From the IMG/VR virus record IMGVR_UViG_3300029505_000002: a DNA stretch of 64,000 nucleotides; one strand, written 5' to 3'. The first letter of the stretch is position 1. Every line of letters starts with the position of its first letter. The notes under the pieces were generated by a model. That model was not told the DNA's origin and did not search any database. It saw only the letters and a list, made by a program, of their open reading frames with translations. This document shows positions 49,580-61,208 of this stretch, one piece after another. Made by a program: the position numbers and the translations under genes. This stretch comes from a virus. Lineage: Duplodnaviria; Heunggongvirae; Uroviricota; Caudoviricetes.

Positions 49580-49939
49580 TTATTTTGCACTGTCTTTGCT
49601 TATTGTTAAAAATTCAGCTTTAAATTTTCTAAGTATATCCTCAAATGTTCTTTCAAATTCATATATTACAAACAAAGTTGCTGTTTTAGTATGATATCCT
49701 TGATATTGTTGATTATTTACAAGATTTCTCATACTTCTATGTATACACCAGATTATATTTGTTGACTTATGATTATCAAACATATATTCATGAGGTCCTA
49801 CTTCTGTAGCAGATTTATCTAAATCCAAATATTCATTCATAGCAAATTTTCCTTTATAGAATTTAATTCCTGCTTTTTTCTTTCCTTCTATAACGCTTGG
49901 TACTAGCCAATATGTGTTGCCTTTTCTATAAATTTTCAT
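49580..49939 (-). CDS. hypothetical protein
   Basis: 119-aa ORF. Confidence 0.4.
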   Translation of the reverse strand: MKIYRKGNTYWLVPSVIEGKKKAGIKFYKGKFAMNEYLDLDKSATEVGPHEYMFDNHKSTNIIWCIHRSMRNLVNNQQYQGYHTKTATLFVIYEFERTFEDILRKFKAEFLTISKDSAK

Positions 49940-50658
49940 TTTTGCCCTCCTATGTTAAAAAAAATATTATCATTTGACTCTACTATTAAATCTTTAAAAG
50001 TTTCAAATAATTTTGTATGTTTTAATAATTTAGCACTTAAAGAAAAAGTTTGTCTCAATTGATTTCCGTTACAATATTTTATTACTTTGTTTCTTAATTC
50101 TTTTAAAAATTCTTCATCATTTAAAAATTTAAATGGTACTTCTTCTATCCCTACTAATCCTCTTCCAGAAACAATATCTACATAATCTGATAAAATTTTT
50201 TTATCACATTTCATTTCTTCAGAAATAGATTGATATGCCAAATGAATATTTTCTAATACCCATTTTTTATCATTTAATGGCAATCTAATTTTCTTTTTTT
50301 CTTCATTAGGCAGTTCTCCAAATAAATATTTTAATTGATTTAAAACTTTAAAAGTGTAATCGAAATCTTCTTTATATATATAAACATAAGCAAAACATAT
50401 TAAACTATGCAAATTATTTTTTATACTATATTCTATTCTTTCTATTGATTCTTGAATTTTATATTTCATATCCTCCATGAATAAAAGTTCGTGTAGTTCA
50501 ATAATATTAGTTAAATGATAAGCTGGAGTATCTTTAACTTTTACTATTGAACAACTAATTGGATTAGTATTATGAATAATTATTCCTATTTTTGCAGTTT
50601 CTATATACAAATGATTATTATCATCTATTCTAAAAGTTATTTTGATTTTTGCCATCAA
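49936..50658 (-). CDS. hypothetical protein
   Basis: 240-aa ORF. Confidence 0.45.
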   Translation of the reverse strand: MMAKIKITFRIDDNNHLYIETAKIGIIIHNTNPISCSIVKVKDTPAYHLTNIIELHELLFMEDMKYKIQESIERIEYSIKNNLHSLICFAYVYIYKEDFDYTFKVLNQLKYLFGELPNEEKKKIRLPLNDKKWVLENIHLAYQSISEEMKCDKKILSDYVDIVSGRGLVGIEEVPFKFLNDEEFLKELRNKVIKYCNGNQLRQTFSLSAKLLKHTKLFETFKDLIVESNDNIFFNIGGQK

Positions 50659-51065
50659 TCATCAATCCTTTCATATACTACTTTCTTTTCTTTAAATAGT
50701 TTTACTAATTCTTCATCAACAAATTCATGATTTATTCTTAATCTACCTTTTAAATTGCTATTTAAGAATTGTATTATTCTTTCTTTGCTAGTTTCAAACA
50801 TTTCTGTATTTTCAATATAATAACTTTGTTCTAAAACAGTTTCTATAATTTCTTCTTTTTGAAATTGTTCAGGTGCTTCTTCATATAATAAATCAAAATC
50901 AAAATTTAATAGATATTTTATAAGTTCTTTGTCATTTAAATCATATTTAAATAATTCTTCATCATCTACATTATATTTGTTTAAAATATGATCTACGATT
51001 GCTTCTATTCTTATTGAATATACTAAAAAATATATATCATTTTCTAATATATTAAATATCATCAT
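50655..51065 (-). CDS. hypothetical protein (start reset to the internal Met)
   Basis: the track ORF begins at 51125 inside the GC-rich structured TnpB 3' region; the internal ATG at 51065 has a GGGAG RBS 8 nt upstream. Confidence 0.4.
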   Translation of the reverse strand: MMIFNILENDIYFLVYSIRIEAIVDHILNKYNVDDEELFKYDLNDKELIKYLLNFDFDLLYEEAPEQFQKEEIIETVLEQSYYIENTEMFETSKERIIQFLNSNLKGRLRINHEFVDEELVKLFKEKKVVYERIDD

Positions 51066-51165
51066 TTGATACTCCCAACGAATGAATTCGTGGGATTCTC
51101 GGGTAGTAGAACCTTTTGTTAGCATTCTAAATTTACCGAGCTCAGAAGGGCTATCCTACCCTCTA
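51040..51165 (-). ncRNA. candidate TnpB omega-RNA / IS right-end structured region
   Basis: GC-richer segment overlapping and following the TnpB 3' end: cccaacgaatgaattcgtggg inverted repeat, gggtagtagaacc, ccgagctcagaagggctatcctaccc; IS605-family omega-RNAs derive from the tnpB 3' end plus the right end. Confidence 0.4.
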
Positions 51166-52323
51166 GTGTATTTTTCTTCCTTCTACTAAAATGTTAATAG
51201 AAGCATTTAAATCTCTATCATGTTCTTCTCCACATTGTGGACATACCCATTTTCTTATACTTGTATCTTTTACAAGTGCATTTTGATAACCACACGCAGA
51301 ACATATTTGACTACTAGCATAATATTGATTTATCTGTACAACATTTCTACCATACATTTTACCTTTATTATTTAGCATTATTACAAATGTTCCAAATGCT
51401 GAATCCATTATCGCTTTAGAAATACGTTTATCTTTAGACATTTCTTTTACATCTAAACTTTCTAAACAAATTAATTGGTTTTCTTGAATTAGTTTAGTTG
51501 ATAGTTTATGTAAAAAGTCTTTTCTTATATTAGCTATTCTTTCATGTAATAAAGCTATTTGTAGTTTTAGTTTTTTATATCTATTACTTTTTCTATCTTT
51601 CTTTTTAGATAGTTTTCTTTGTAATTTTTTCAATCTAGCTATATTTTTCCACATTGGTTTCGGAGCTTTAAATTCTTGTCCATCAGAACAAACAGCAAAT
51701 GTTTTTAATCCTAAGTCAATACCTATTTCTTTTGTAACTGGTTGTAATTTACTAGTGGTTTCATCAACACAAAAAGAAATAAAGTATTTTTCAGTAGGAG
51801 TTTTAGATATAGTAGCAGAAAGAATTTTTCCATTAAACTTTCTAGACCAAATTATATCTACTAATCCTACTTTTGGAATCAAAACTTGATTACCTTTAAT
51901 TTTACAAGTAGTTGTTTTGTAACTAGCTTTAGGATTATTTTTACTTTTAAACTTAGGATGAGCTTCGCTGTCTATAATTGTTGGTTTTTTATTTTTTCTT
52001 TTTAAACGTTCTACAACTTTAGAAGAATATCTAACTCCATTTTCCTTTACAAATTCAAACCAATTCTTATAAGTACTTTCTAATTGTTTCAAAGTTTGTT
52101 GCAACGCAGTAGAATCAACTTCGTTTAAGAAGGTATCTGATTTTTTAATTTGAGTTAATAAAGCTGACATTTTGTTATAATTTAACTTTTCTCCAAATTC
52201 TTTAAAACGAAATTCTTTTAAAGCTAAAAAGCCATTCCAAACATATCTACAGCAATTGAATGTTTTATCGATAATTTCTTGTTGTTCTTTTGTTGGGTAG
52301 ATTCTATATTTATATCCTTTCAA
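51163..52323 (-). CDS. tnpB: TnpB (IS200/IS605-family OrfB; RuvC-like RNA-guided nuclease)
   Basis: N-terminal MKGYKYRIYPTKEQ is a hallmark of OrfB/TnpB; C-terminal Zn finger CSACG...CPQCG; RuvC-III-like DRDLNASINIL. Confidence 0.8.
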   Translation of the reverse strand: MKGYKYRIYPTKEQQEIIDKTFNCCRYVWNGFLALKEFRFKEFGEKLNYNKMSALLTQIKKSDTFLNEVDSTALQQTLKQLESTYKNWFEFVKENGVRYSSKVVERLKRKNKKPTIIDSEAHPKFKSKNNPKASYKTTTCKIKGNQVLIPKVGLVDIIWSRKFNGKILSATISKTPTEKYFISFCVDETTSKLQPVTKEIGIDLGLKTFAVCSDGQEFKAPKPMWKNIARLKKLQRKLSKKKDRKSNRYKKLKLQIALLHERIANIRKDFLHKLSTKLIQENQLICLESLDVKEMSKDKRISKAIMDSAFGTFVIMLNNKGKMYGRNVVQINQYYASSQICSACGYQNALVKDTSIRKWVCPQCGEEHDRDLNASINILVEGRKIH

Positions 52324-52462
52324 TTTTTACACCTCCTTTTTGTCGATTATATTTTTTTACATTATAATAATGTATATACATATTATACATAGATTATACT
52401 TTTAAACAAATTTACATATGTTTTTATGTGTATATACATATTAATAATCGGAGGTAACAAAT

Positions 52463-52603
52463 ATGAAAAAAAGAATACAATTAGTGATGAATGAAAAAGT
52501 TTACAAGGAACTTCAAAAAAGAGCAATAGATGAAGATACAACTGTATCTGCTATATTAGAAAAACTTGCTGCAGATTATTTAGCCTTATATCCCCATGAC
52601 TAA
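52463..52603 (+). CDS. ribbon-helix-helix (CopG/Arc-like) DNA-binding protein, unlisted small ORF
   Basis: TCGGAGGTAACAAAT-ATG; MKKRIQLVMNEKVYKELQKRAIDEDTTVSAILEKLAADYLALYPHD has the beta-strand + two-helix RHH pattern; followed by a ccccatgac..gtcagggg tttt hairpin. Confidence 0.5.
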   Translation: MKKRIQLVMNEKVYKELQKRAIDEDTTVSAILEKLAADYLALYPHD

Positions 52604-52667
52604 AGTCAGGGGTTTTACGGCTATTCCCCATAAAATCACCTTCCTTTTTTTATTTAAAATAACATAA

Positions 52668-52700
52668 TAAAAAAAGCAGAAGTAATTAAACCTCTGCTTC
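52668..52700 (-). terminator. rho-independent terminator after the ParB-like gene
   Basis: aaaaaagcagaagtaattaaacctctgcttc. Confidence 0.45.
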
Positions 52701-52723
52701 TTATATAGCGTTATTTTATTCTC

Positions 52724-52743
52724 AGTTTCTCACGTGAGAAACT
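52724..52743. repeat. 20-bp perfect palindrome AGTTTCTCACGTGAGAAACT; parS-like candidate centromere
   Basis: CACGTG centre flanked by GTTTC/GAAAC, as in the TGTTNCACGTGAAACA parS consensus; lies ~20 bp downstream of the ParB-like gene. Confidence 0.45.
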
Positions 52744-52759
52744 CATTATTTATATTGAA

Positions 52760-53500
52760 TTAAACATCGTTTTCTAATTCAGCTTTCATTGATTTTTCTA
52801 ATTCTTTAATAATTGCTATTTTTTCTTTTTGTAATTTTATTTCTTCCTTAAGTATTTCAAGTTCTTCTCTTTTCTCTTTCAACAAAAGTTCAAGATTTTT
52901 TCTATCTTTAGTCGTTTGTTTTAATTTTTCTTTTTTATCATCTAAAGATAATTCTTTAAAATAATCTATATCTACTTCCTCTGGTTCTTCAGGTCCTTTT
53001 ATTTTATATTCTATAGCTTTTGCTATATTATCAGAGCTTATAATATCTATTACCTCTGCTTCCTCTATTTCTTTATTATTAAGAGCTTTAGTGATCATAG
53101 TTGTTTCTCTAGCTGTTAAATCCATAACAGTTTCCATATTAGAAATCAAATAAAGTTTATATTTATCTAAACATCTATATACAAAAGGTCTTGATAAGCC
53201 TAATTGTTCGATCCATTTAATAAAAGTTCCATCACCAACTTTTTCTCTTGATAATATTTTTTGAGCATCATATAAAGCCATAGATATATCCATTAAAGAA
53301 CTAGAAATTATTTCTTGTTTCTTTACTACTATCTGTTCTAATTCTATTAGTTTTATCTTTTCAGTCTCGCCTACTTGCAACATTTGGTAATCAACTTTTG
53401 ACGTATAGGTGTTAGTGTTTATTATTTGAGTAAGATTGTTTTGTATTTGATTTCTATTTAGGTTTTCTCTGTTTCCAAGCATAAATGTTTTTTTAGCCAA
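52760..53500 (-). CDS. putative partition protein (ParB-like / centromere-binding), third gene of the rep-parA operon
   Basis: position immediately downstream of parA; HTH-like FIKWIEQLGLSRPFVYRCLDKY; C-terminal coiled coil. Confidence 0.45.
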   Translation of the reverse strand: MAKKTFMLGNRENLNRNQIQNNLTQIINTNTYTSKVDYQMLQVGETEKIKLIELEQIVVKKQEIISSSLMDISMALYDAQKILSREKVGDGTFIKWIEQLGLSRPFVYRCLDKYKLYLISNMETVMDLTARETTMITKALNNKEIEEAEVIDIISSDNIAKAIEYKIKGPEEPEEVDIDYFKELSLDDKKEKLKQTTKDRKNLELLLKEKREELEILKEEIKLQKEKIAIIKELEKSMKAELENDV

Positions 53501-53502
53501 CT

Positions 53503-54321
53503 TTATTCACTCCCTCTTTTTTTTCTTTGTTTAGTTATTCCTATTCTTTTCATTACTTCTTTACAAAAAGATTCATAATCTCTTCCAACATTAGATTTAG
53601 GTTTATATTCAAATATTGATTGATTACACGCTATTGCTTCAATCATAGTAACACTTTGTCTAATTGTAGAAGCCATCAAAACATCTCCAAATATATTTTT
53701 TAATTCGTTAGATATCTCTTTGCTTATTACACTTCTTTCATCATAAAGTGTTAAGAATACTCCACCCATTTGTAAATTTTCATTAAATGTTAATTTTATT
53801 GTTTCTATACTTTCTGCTAATACTGTAGAACCACTTAATTCAAATATACCAGCTTTAACTGGAATAAATACATAATTAGAAGCAACAAGAGCATTTATCG
53901 TAAGTGTTCCTAGGTTAGGAGAACAGTCAATTACACAAACATCATAAAATTTACCAGCATCTAAAAGTACTTTCTTTAATAAGTTTTCTTTTCCTAGCTC
54001 AGAAGAAAAATTGATATTTGCTCTTTCCAAAGTAAGGTTAGAAGGTAACAAATCTATGTTTTCTTTTATATTTATAAGATATTTAGTTAACTGTTTATCA
54101 GAGTTTTTATTATTCATTAAAGTATATTCAGACATAATATCATATGCTGTACCTTTCAAAACATTTGGATTAGTTCCGAAAGCAGTAGATAAATTTCCTT
54201 GTGGATCCAAATCTATTCCTAATACTCTTAATCCATTATCACTTAAATAATGAATTAAATTAAACGCTGATGTTGTTTTAGCAACTCCTCCTTTGTTATT
54301 ACACAAACTAATGGTAATCAT
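53503..54321 (-). CDS. parA: ParA/Soj-family partition ATPase
   Basis: deviant Walker A NNKGGVAKTT; DLDPQGN. Confidence 0.8.
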   Translation of the reverse strand: MITISLCNNKGGVAKTTSAFNLIHYLSDNGLRVLGIDLDPQGNLSTAFGTNPNVLKGTAYDIMSEYTLMNNKNSDKQLTKYLINIKENIDLLPSNLTLERANINFSSELGKENLLKKVLLDAGKFYDVCVIDCSPNLGTLTINALVASNYVFIPVKAGIFELSGSTVLAESIETIKLTFNENLQMGGVFLTLYDERSVISKEISNELKNIFGDVLMASTIRQSVTMIEAIACNQSIFEYKPKSNVGRDYESFCKEVMKRIGITKQRKKRGSE

Positions 54322-54323
54322 TT

Positions 54324-55997
54324 TTATTCCTCCTCTTTTATAATAAACATTTTATTTAAAATCATATCTGCCATTTTTTCTGTATTACCTATCTCGATAT
54401 ATCTTTCTAATTCTTTTTTATATTCTTCCATACTAACAATATATTTATCTTGAGATTGTAATCTATTCTCTTCTTTACAAATGTCATATAAAGTTTTATT
54501 TTCACTTGAAACATTTGGTAATTCAGTTTTTACCATATCTGATACTTTTTTAATAGTTTTGTTTTTTAACTCTTTTTCAGTTCTTTTAATTTTGGTTTCC
54601 ATTTTAATACTTGCTTCTTCTTTTTTATTTTTAATAATTCCATTTATATATTGTACAAGAGTTTTTTCTATCTCTTGTTTTAAATTGCTATATAAATCAT
54701 TTAATATTTCACAAGTAAATGCAGAACCAAAATCTTTTAAGAGTTTTAAAATTTTATTATCAACATTTTTATTCCAAGCTTTACTAACATATATGTTTCT
54801 TTTAGCTTTTGTAATAGCTTTGGATAATTGTTCATCTATTTCTACATCTGATAGAGCATCTACCGTTATAGGTTCATTTTCATTATTTGTTTTTATTATT
54901 TGTTGCCTCATAGTAAATTTAATTTCTTTAAAATTATAATTTGGAATTAATTCATACTCTATGCACATTCCTGTTTTTACTTTTATATCTGCAATAGTAG
55001 GAATTAGAAATCTATTTACTAAGTGTTGCTTGTTCTTTAAATAACTTTCAGGCAATTGAAAAAAACCTTTGCATTGTTCTTTAGTTATAGTTACATATCC
55101 AAATTTAATATGATCTTTTAAAAAGGAATATAGTCTTATCGAATATTTTCCAGTAAGTTTATGTGTATTTTTTTCTTGTAGATGTACATATACTTCTGGC
55201 ATTAATAAATATTTTAATATTTCATCTGGTATCTGATAGCTCATCCAAGTCATTCTTTTCTTTTGAATAAAAGCAATACTAGCAATCATATTAGATACAG
55301 ATTCTATTTTAAGATTTTTTTTATCAATATAATTAAATGATAATTGTATTTTAGAAGCTTTTATAAGATTATCTTTTAATCTCTTAGAATTCATACCTAA
55401 TCTATTAGAAAAGGAAGTGAAATCTATAATTTTAGTTCTTCCATATCTGTTTAAAGTTTCATATACACATATATCCTTAATAGATTCTATTAGTTCTATT
55501 AATTCGTTATCTGTATATACTAAAAGTTCCATATTTTTCATAGATAGTTTTTTAACATCTATACCCTCTATATCAAGAAGATATTTTTCTTTTTTAGTTT
55601 TATCTATTAAAGAAGAATGTGCAGCTTCTATTTTTTTTCTTAAAATTTCTTCTTTAAGTTTTGGAACTTCTTCTGATTTTATTTTAGAAAAATCAATATT
55701 TATCTTTTTTATACCATCTTTAACATATGCAATCTTTAATAGATTATCTATTGTTTTGCTATCACTAAATAATCTACGTAGATAAGGTTTATATATGTCA
55801 AAGAATAATTTTTGTAATTCCATTTGAGTATCTGCTAATATAGATATAATACTTTTTTCAGTATCTATATTGTAATACTCTTGCTCTGTTGTAAATGTTA
55901 CTAGAGCGCTGTGTTGTTTCAATATTCTATCTGATTCAATAATTTCATTTTTTTTTAATCTCATCAAGAAAACAACTCCTGTAGTTTCATGTTTCAT
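54324..55997 (-). CDS. plasmid replication initiator (Rep_3 / RepB-like)
   Basis: C-terminal KYSIRLYSFLKDHIKFGYVTITKEQCKGFFQLPESYL...RFLIPTIADIKVKTGMCIEYE follows the Rep_3 pattern (Y.IRLYE.L...G...i....l...l.lp..Y......r.vl.pai.ein); iterons lie immediately upstream. Confidence 0.6.
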   Translation of the reverse strand: MKHETTGVVFLMRLKKNEIIESDRILKQHSALVTFTTEQEYYNIDTEKSIISILADTQMELQKLFFDIYKPYLRRLFSDSKTIDNLLKIAYVKDGIKKINIDFSKIKSEEVPKLKEEILRKKIEAAHSSLIDKTKKEKYLLDIEGIDVKKLSMKNMELLVYTDNELIELIESIKDICVYETLNRYGRTKIIDFTSFSNRLGMNSKRLKDNLIKASKIQLSFNYIDKKNLKIESVSNMIASIAFIQKKRMTWMSYQIPDEILKYLLMPEVYVHLQEKNTHKLTGKYSIRLYSFLKDHIKFGYVTITKEQCKGFFQLPESYLKNKQHLVNRFLIPTIADIKVKTGMCIEYELIPNYNFKEIKFTMRQQIIKTNNENEPITVDALSDVEIDEQLSKAITKAKRNIYVSKAWNKNVDNKILKLLKDFGSAFTCEILNDLYSNLKQEIEKTLVQYINGIIKNKKEEASIKMETKIKRTEKELKNKTIKKVSDMVKTELPNVSSENKTLYDICKEENRLQSQDKYIVSMEEYKKELERYIEIGNTEKMADMILNKMFIIKEEE

Positions 55998-61132: not shown

Positions 61133-61208
61133 TGGTGCTTGCTACAGGAATTGAACCTGCTACCTATTGCTTACCATGCAATTGCTCTACCTATTGAGCT
61201 AAGCAAGC
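61133..61208 (-). tRNA. tRNA-Thr (anticodon GGU)
   Basis: manual fold: acceptor GCTTGCT/AGCAAGC, D-arm GCTC-AATAGGTA-GAGC, anticodon stem ATTGC/GCAAT with loop ATGGTAA, T-arm GCAGG-TTCAATT-CCTGT, discriminator A, CCA encoded; 76 nt. Confidence 0.7.

Follow-up and report, generated by a model that had tools for sequence, protein, structure and literature searches.

The viral DNA stretch IMGVR_UViG_3300029505_000002 (64,000 nt, hereafter referred to in its entirety as the window) very probably carries, at 52629..51066 on the minus strand, a 1564-bp non-autonomous insertion sequence of the IS200/IS605 family. This element is of the arc–tnpB type, has IS608-like ends and resides in a large phage or phage-plasmid of Fusobacterium type. 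Read in the tnpB sense, it consists of a left-end hairpin, a divergent gene for a 46-aa Arc-like ribbon-helix-helix (RHH) protein, a control region with two palindromes that are presumed operators, tnpB, and a structured right end. Arc–tnpB IS605 elements are an already-known kind, and this 1.56-kb example leaves the understanding of the family unchanged. The features of the element and its immediate flanks are as follows.

52630..52633 (-): TTAT target motif, outside the element; left cleavage site of the transposase TnpA and predicted transposon-associated motif (TAM) of TnpB
52588..52629 (-): left end, conserved in contigs L003, L004, L006, L057 and L140-L158 with differing flanks
52463..52603 (+), divergent from tnpB: arc-like RHH gene, 46 aa (Pfam, AlphaFold2 model, Foldseek, conserved position)
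52324..52462 (no strand): arc/tnpB divergent control region with two copies of ATATGTATATACA, presumed Arc operators
51163..52323 (-): tnpB, predicted RNA-guided nuclease, 386 aa (Pfam, NCBIfam, match to ISDra2 TnpB; catalytic residues intact)
51066..51163 (-): right end and predicted 3′ part of the omega-RNA scaffold (covariance model R1; flanks diverge past TCAA)
51046..51065 (-): predicted guide ATGATGATATTTAATA (extending to TATT), starting at the first base past TCAA, and first codons of the downstream gene

Boundaries, ends and insertion site

A protein search with TnpB retrieved relatives at 97, 89, 79 and 65% identity and a further group near 63%. On the right, the window and contigs L002, L004 and L006 share approximately 98 nt past the tnpB stop codon, finishing in ...GGGA(G/A)TATCAA, after which they are unrelated. 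Because the shared sequence stops at TATCAA, the right end lies at 51066, and the ATG at 51065 supplies the first base outside the element. On the left, the shared sequence upstream of tnpB runs through the RHH gene to ...ATAGCCGTAAAACCCCTGACTTTAGTCATGGGG, which is always preceded by TTAT and four to five variable bases.

Homologues of the downstream protein led to an uninterrupted allele in L139, a contig of 196 kb and Rep3/ParA type with close relatives that bear the name Fusobacterium sp. (P0124). Its empty site reads ...AAAAAAAGGAAGGTGATTTTAT/ATGATGATATTTAATATATTAGAAAG..., where the slash marks the position of the insertion; the same junction can be written GGAAGGTGATTTTAT/ATGATGATATTT, GGAAGGTGATTTTAT/ATGATG or TTAT/ATGATGATATTTAAT. 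L139 3243..3330 matches window 52717..52630 at 96.6%, with the alignment ending exactly at 52630. Since the divergence at the right end, the divergence at the left end and the L139 empty site all agree, the span of the element is fixed at 52629..51066. The insertion lies 3′ of TTAT (52633..52630), without target duplication, and separates the ATG of a phage gene precisely from its ribosome-binding site. An exact-pattern search for the empty site in viral contigs gave no match, nor did megablast of the 2.2-kb region against phage and plasmid collections. Single-protein scans returned one distant partial match from genome contigs and none from viral contigs; an alignment-based scan succeeded.

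The initial annotation, made from the sequence of the window, had placed the element at 51040-52460 and had set a comparison with an uninterrupted allele beforehand as its check. That comparison yielded the L139 site, which defined both ends and the TTAT motif. The structured 3′ segment stood as the right end; the true left end, 52629, lies 170 bp beyond the proposed one.

In the tnpB sense, the two ends read:

left: TTAT/GGGGAATAGCCGT-AAAA-(CCCCTGAC TTTA GTCA(T)GGGG)-ATAT
right: GAAT-(CCCACGAA TTCA TTCG(T)TGGG)-AGTA-TCAA/

On the left, the tetranucleotide AAAA (52616..52613) is followed by an imperfect hairpin (52612..52592) and then ATAT; the fold of the left-end DNA has a z of -3.1. On the right, GAAT (51098..51095) is followed by a hairpin (51094..51074) and TCAA (51069..51066). 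The element thus has a subterminal imperfect palindrome with one bulged T at each end and no terminal inverted repeats, the arrangement by which IS200/IS605 elements are recognized. The TnpA of IS608 reads each cleavage site through a tetranucleotide 5′ of the foot of the corresponding hairpin. The left site, TTAC, lies 19 nt upstream of its hairpin and is recognized through AAAG; the right site, TCAA, lies 10 nt downstream of its hairpin and is recognized through GAAT (PMC3201880, PMC5934647). The pairs read from the sequence here, TTAT/AAAA on the left and TCAA/GAAT on the right, follow this rule.

Ends of another kind were seen in the relatives near 63% identity. L007, L009 and L010 have the same omega-RNA core with wholly different left and right hairpins, and their right ends finish in ...GGTTCA, which suggests that one TnpB/RNA chassis has been combined with another TnpA specificity and another TAM. 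On the upstream side of the insertion, two terminator-like hairpins (52671..52702 and 52724..52743) lie between a 246-aa gene (52760..53500) and the insertion site, and the hairpin at 52671..52702 is kept in L139 just upstream of the empty site.

TnpB, its predicted guide RNA and the arc-like gene

The tnpB gene starts with TTG, with GGAGGTG ahead of it, and the protein begins MKGYKYRIYPT. Three Pfam families match above cut-off, namely HTH_OrfB_IS605 (PF12323, E 1.5e-16), OrfB_IS605 (PF01385, E 3.8e-27) and Cas12f1-like_TNB (PF07282, E 6.1e-22). Of the NCBIfam models, guided_TnpB reaches 310 bits (cut-off 100) and IS200_TnpB falls slightly under its own cut-off (421.8 vs 425). The protein also matches the solved ISDra2 TnpB (8BF8, E 8.6e-72). 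Across 21 aligned sequences (20 relatives plus the window), there is no variation at D203, E288 and D371 of RuvC or at C341, C344, C361 and C364 of the zinc finger. Judged by its sequence, TnpB is predicted to be an RNA-guided, TAM-dependent nuclease. Truncated forms occur among the relatives: in L151 (2727..3401) and L157 (2722..3396), a C-terminally truncated TnpB of 224 aa is joined to a dUTPase region, and the TNB domain, omega-RNA and right end are lost, constituting another deletion on the right-end side.

The 100 nt at 51066..51165 have a GC content of 0.43, compared to 0.253 for the window. Just 0.3% of 100-nt segments reach this value, the others being mostly tRNA genes. The segment is rich in hairpins (z -2.6), and folding of an alignment predicted three helices in the stretch from the stop codon to the terminal hairpin (51163..51095), with five pairs covarying among ten sequences. 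A further helix at 51205..51180, inside the 3′ coding region of tnpB, appears in the single-sequence fold and is not claimed here because the alignment fold gives it no support.

We built a covariance model (R1) of the 69-nt core of this structure. R1 hits the window at one site (51163..51095, 95.7 bits) and recovers every close relative as well as several distant ones, Geobacillus virus E3 among them. Pairing extends to 99.1% of cells in the R1 alignment, and changes on both sides occur in 13 of the 18 pairs; none of 500 shuffles reached these values, and pairing falls to 30-53% when the partners are slid. The terminal hairpin varies in sequence and length among relatives, yet one is always present. 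By its position, its size and its flank-derived 3′ extension, the segment fits the 3′ part of a TnpB omega-RNA scaffold, a predicted RNA.

In TnpB systems the TAM corresponds to the target motif of the transposon. The predicted guide begins at the first base past TCAA with AUGAUGAUAUUUAAUA and covers 51065..51050 (up to 51046). L139 has this sequence immediately after TTAT, with the first 25 nt identical; because it adjoins TTAT there and is identical over that length, an L139-type allele is the predicted homing target. The predicted TnpB target is TTAT-ATGATGATATTTAATA, or in a longer form TTAT-ATGATGATATTTAATATATT. A small, 386-aa TnpB from a Fusobacterium phage lineage is therefore directly testable, since TAM (TTAT), guide (ATGATGATATTTAATA) and target (the L139 allele) are all specified.

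This part of the initial annotation fared well. It had taken the GC-richer, hairpin-containing 3′ segment for the right end and scaffold, and the GC content, the R1 covariation and the divergence of the flanks all bear this out. The guide it placed just beyond the right end corresponds to 51065..~51046 and matches the L139 empty site. It had named the lack of any conserved structure or empty site as the outcome that would count against it; the analysis found a covarying structure and the empty site in L139. In the covariance search it proposed, Rfam models did not match and the purpose-built R1 found conserved structure.

Between the left end and tnpB, on the plus strand, lies the 46-aa RHH gene. 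It matches Pfam RHH_1 (20.6 vs a cut-off of 20.5) and RHH_5 (E 6.6e-5). The AlphaFold2 model (predicted local distance difference test score 85) has an extended N-terminal strand region followed by two helices, and the top Foldseek matches are CopG (2CPG; TM-score 0.72, probability 0.99), AtaR and Arc. The gene runs out within the left-end hairpin, which contains its last codons (LALYPHD) and, in the loop, its stop codon. A gene for a 46-aa protein occupies the equivalent position, in the same orientation, in L004, L005, L006, L057 and 19 more contigs that RHH relatives led to (L140-L158); the TnpB relatives near 63% identity are without it. In L003, whose TnpB is 89% identical, arc has been lost by a clean internal deletion (GGCTAAATAAT/TTGTTAATATG; L003 1..218), and the left-end hairpin and both palindromes are retained.

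The control region contains exactly two copies of the 13-mer ATATGTATATACA, at 52371..52383 and 52429..52441 (-). Without mismatch it occurs nowhere else in the window, and even if one mismatch is tolerated, 0.43 occurrences would be expected by chance. Sequences resembling promoter hexamers are predicted at 52340..52368 (+). Arc-like RHH open reading frames (ORFs) in TnpB elements were described by Zedaveinyte et al. (10.1101/2023.11.20.567912). Moon et al. (September 2026; bioRxiv 10.64898/2026.09.24.754181) used chromatin immunoprecipitation sequencing and reporters to show that Arc binds and represses the bidirectional arc–tnpB promoter, and their set includes elements with arc and tnpB alone (bioRxiv 10.64898/2026.09.24.754181). 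By analogy of fold, position and divergent layout, the RHH protein appears to correspond to this published IS605 Arc repressor, and we tentatively regard the two ATATGTATATACA palindromes as its operators.

Since the left end at 52629 encloses the RHH ORF, both this gene and the palindromes are inside the element. The initial annotation had recognized two real palindromes and a real opposite-strand RHH gene but had placed them in the 5′ flank, and its description of the element as TnpB-only does not hold, the RHH gene being conserved with TnpB in relatives. Its core proposal, an IS605-family element encoding a TnpB with a YRIYPT N-terminus, a zinc finger and RuvC and lacking TnpA, agrees with the Pfam and NCBIfam matches, the invariant residues and the TnpA search described below. 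Overall, the proposal is partly supported and holds with three corrections, to the left end, to the status of the RHH gene and palindromes as cargo, and to a count of codons in the downstream gene.

Mobility, the downstream gene and alternative readings

We searched for the missing transposase with a hidden Markov model built from 35 Y1 TnpA proteins found beside relatives of ~40% identity. A six-frame translation of the 64-kb window contained nothing (best E 0.076). Because no Y1 TnpA was found in the window or in close-clade loci, we call the element non-autonomous. Non-autonomous IS200/IS605 elements with tnpB only are known as the IS1341 type. The contigs fetched show nine distinct left flanks, each with TTAT at its end (in one case offset by 1 nt), and, after TCAA, nine distinct right flanks, with guides that differ accordingly. 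This arc–tnpB family is thus transposase-less and yet has spread to many sites in related phages. The most economical explanation is that a TnpA acting in trans, not found in the DNA examined, moves the clade. One of the sites, in L140 (also L141-L148), lies inside an ORF, 7 codons past its ATG (reconstructed site ATGGGATACTATACGGATTAT/TATAATAAACTT); therefore, some insertions hit coding sequence.

From the established biology of IS608 and ISDra2, we can propose how the element would behave. TnpA supplied in trans would excise and insert the top strand, recognizing TTAT via the AAAA ahead of the left hairpin and TCAA via the GAAT ahead of the right one. Processing of the tnpB transcript would yield an omega-RNA whose guide is the 16-20 nt past TCAA (AUGAUGAUAUUUAAUA...). 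TnpB would cut TTAT-flanked empty sites such as the L139 allele, and recombination would restore or spread the element (homing). Arc would bind the two ATATGTATATACA palindromes, repressing tnpB and its own gene. Finally, the downstream gene would be translated from the ATG at 51065, perhaps via a GGGAG in the right-end hairpin that replaces the displaced ribosome-binding site.

Three features beside the element bear on this last step and on the deletion discussed below.

50655..51065 (-): downstream ORF, 136 aa from its supported start, MMIFNIL... (homologue P0122, L139 empty site)
52636..52644 (-): GGAAGGTGA, original ribosome-binding site of the downstream gene, now the 1564-bp insertion away from the ATG
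50190..50193 (-): second TTAT, endpoint of the 876-bp deletion in L057

The source's gene call (P0121) for the downstream ORF is 156 aa long and starts at 51125, inside the right end. The bases 51066..51125 are mobile-element sequence that is found in unrelated contexts. The homologue P0122 (136 aa, 89% identity; contigs L137 and L138 carry the same insertion) begins MMIFNIL, and in L139 the same ATG is preceded by its own GGAAGGTGA ribosome-binding site. Together, these two observations support a start at 51065. The initial annotation had favored this start, and P0122 and L139 agree with it; it had also correctly seen that the N-terminus of 50655..51125 lies inside the structured region, but the 60 codons it counted there are 60 nt, that is, 20 codons. 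The local annotation can be corrected to an element at 52629..51066, a downstream start at 51065 and a 46-aa arc gene.

A GGGAG (51076..51072) lies 6 nt upstream of the ATG at 51065 and could serve as a replacement ribosome-binding site. In L004 the downstream ORF likewise begins on the first base after TCAA, making two of the nine sites. Such sites are most simply explained by TTAT/ATG being common at gene starts in AT-rich DNA, together with selection for non-disruptive insertions. A more speculative reading is that the GGGAG-N6 arrangement in the right end has been kept because it replaces the ribosome-binding site of genes with the preferred TTAT/ATG start.

Apart from the insertion, the 136-aa ORF (50655..51065) has a history of its own. 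It is an in-frame fusion of the first 17 codons of a 218-aa gene with the last ~119 codons of the next, 228-aa gene. Because both genes are intact in L139 (3331..4687 compared), the window has undergone a deletion of ~946 bp with CAA/AATAAG microhomology, which L137 and L138 share. The same comparison rules out a simple truncation of the ORF.

Several observations weigh against the interpretation of the locus as an arc–tnpB element with an omega-RNA. We infer the omega-RNA, its 5′ end and its processing from sequence. The covariation alignment was fitted to the model and has 13 distinct rows, and Rfam scans, by E-value and by gathering threshold, returned no omega-RNA or intron family, only chance matches and tRNAs. 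The TnpA model also found nothing in 160 kb of close-clade loci, with 48 matches in distant loci as a positive control. The RHH_1 score exceeds its Pfam cut-off by 0.1 bit only, and tblastn of the RHH protein against a phage collection (including the C. botulinum phage c-st) gave no match. The operator assignment is tentative because the palindromes in the relatives of 65-79% identity differ (ACATATATGT). Lastly, the GGGAG is part of a hairpin arm and could be occluded.

The absence of TnpA from the window and from 160 kb of close relatives, the constant co-orientation of tnpB with the phage genes and the adjacent gene for a transcription factor would all suit a domesticated, immobile TnpB, either a nuclease-dead regulator resembling TldR or a phage-exapted nuclease that works with the RHH protein. 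TldR proteins are recognized by loss of both catalysis and transposon ends. Here, D203, E288, D371 and the zinc finger are intact and invariant, the IS608-type ends are complete, an empty site exists in L139, and nine insertion sites with unrelated flanks have guides that differ to match, which makes domestication very improbable. Much the same can be said of the idea that the GC-rich 3′ segment is no guide-RNA scaffold but functions purely at the DNA level, as the hairpin that TnpA recognizes, or else terminates tnpB transcription. The last hairpin (51094..51074) is plainly an imperfect palindrome of the TnpA type, and no Rfam omega-RNA model matched; the three further helices upstream of it nevertheless covary, and IS608 TnpA does not require helices in that position. 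No T-run terminator follows them, they are placed and sized as in TnpB omega-RNAs, and relatives with an entirely different terminal hairpin retain the scaffold. We consider a segment without scaffold function to be just as implausible as domestication.

The 156-aa ORF (50655..51125) could itself be the real product, bearing a 20-residue N-terminal extension derived from the transposon. It is the longest ORF, its frame is open through the right end, and P0121 is the source's own call. Ahead of 51125, however, there is no Shine-Dalgarno-like sequence (GGTAAATTTAGA-ATG), and the extra 60 nt belong to a conserved structured transposon end that elsewhere adjoins unrelated genes. The gene call for P0122 begins at MMIFNIL, and in the empty site the ATG corresponding to 51065 has a ribosome-binding site of its own ahead of it. 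This reading is therefore quite unlikely, and we retain an arc–tnpB insertion sequence followed by a gene that starts at 51065.

One relative carries a deletion directly beside the right end. L057 (ERZ791617 NODE-168, 52.8 kb) is 99% identical to window 54824..51066 and then resumes at window 50189 (L057 3758/3759). The missing 876 bp (51065..50190) end in ...AAATTTTAT, such that the right-end TCAA is joined to the base after another TTAT (junction TCAA/CAGATT). The deletion truncates a 240-aa ORF (49936..50658), and coverage of the contig is low, at about 2.8x. TnpB cleavage as the cause is ruled out, as the endpoint CAGATTATG... mismatches the window guide. Three origins fit the junction: a one-ended TnpA reaction, a second insertion at the TTAT followed by recombination between copies, or recombination between phages with differing sites. 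Each of them implies that TnpA-type activity was recent and leaves the L057 copy with a new guide (CAGATTATGTAGATAT).

In a one-ended reaction, the 3′-OH of the right end would join the cleaved target on the same strand, and the L057 junction is as expected of it. We entertain, as a speculative and rather doubtful proposal, that the ends of this transposase-less element are active sites of phage genome remodelling. If so, IS200/IS605 chemistry in trans would make precise adjacent deletions in nature, reprogramming the TnpB guide in one step. A literature search on adjacent deletions by IS608 found nothing.

Genomic context and comparison with known systems

The genes of the window include ribonucleotide reductase, helicases, a UvsX-like recombinase, a primase-helicase, DNA polymerase, an HNH endonuclease, four tRNAs, ParA and a Rep-like gene, nearly all on one strand, and the relatives are labelled Fusobacterium and Cetobacterium. 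The window is a large phage or phage-plasmid. Three of the tRNA genes (Trp, Asn and Ser) form a cluster at 35272..35516, and tRNA-Thr lies separately at 61133..61208 (-), which fits a large phage. Two overlapping ORFs (27975..29225 and 29149..31785) match different parts of the profile of one phage DNA polymerase family (phrog_405), and there is a GC-rich 100-nt stretch at 29101..29200; the polymerase gene may be split or frameshifted.

The element resembles the IStrons, which combine a group I intron with IS605 or IS607 (PMC4227781), in that TnpB elements of both kinds land at or within genes of low-GC bacteria and of their phages and have features that may reduce the harm done to the gene they interrupt. 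Unlike in IStrons, the Rfam scans detected no group I intron, and the left end extends only ~40 nt before arc.

ISDra2 TnpB (PDB 8BF8, 8EXA, 8H1J) has the same domain order and matches over its full length, and in both elements the guide RNA is encoded, here by prediction, by the 3′ end of tnpB together with the right end, and the flank supplies the guide itself. The sequence similarity is distant, the predicted TAM is TTAT here rather than TTGAT, the scaffold sequence is unrelated, and activity is a prediction in the case described here.

In layout, the element resembles the Arc-containing IS605 elements, which also have a small RHH gene inside the boundaries of the insertion sequence, divergent from tnpB, and repeated motifs over promoter-like sequences between the two genes. 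Some published Arc proteins are <=50 aa and they are often unannotated; the one here has 46 aa. The published examples come from Clostridia (P. xylanilyticum, C. botulinum), whereas this one is in a Fusobacterium-type phage, and the comparison rests on fold and layout, with binding and repression presumed.

With IS608 of Helicobacter pylori, the element shares subterminal imperfect hairpins, read on the tnpB-sense strand and each with a bulged T, and insertion 3′ of a tetranucleotide without duplication. It differs in having no tnpA, in targeting TTAT instead of TTAC, in carrying an arc gene and in its host replicon, a phage or phage-plasmid of a low-GC Fusobacterium-type host. The left spacing is 17 nt rather than 19, and the right cleavage site is 8 nt from the hairpin foot rather than 10; ATAT follows the left hairpin here and ATAC in IS608. 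The right pair, TCAA/GAAT, is identical, and the left pair obeys the same rule. The matched change of AAAG to AAAA with TTAC to TTAT (guide G to A, target C to T) provides a natural check of the IS608 guide-tetranucleotide rule.

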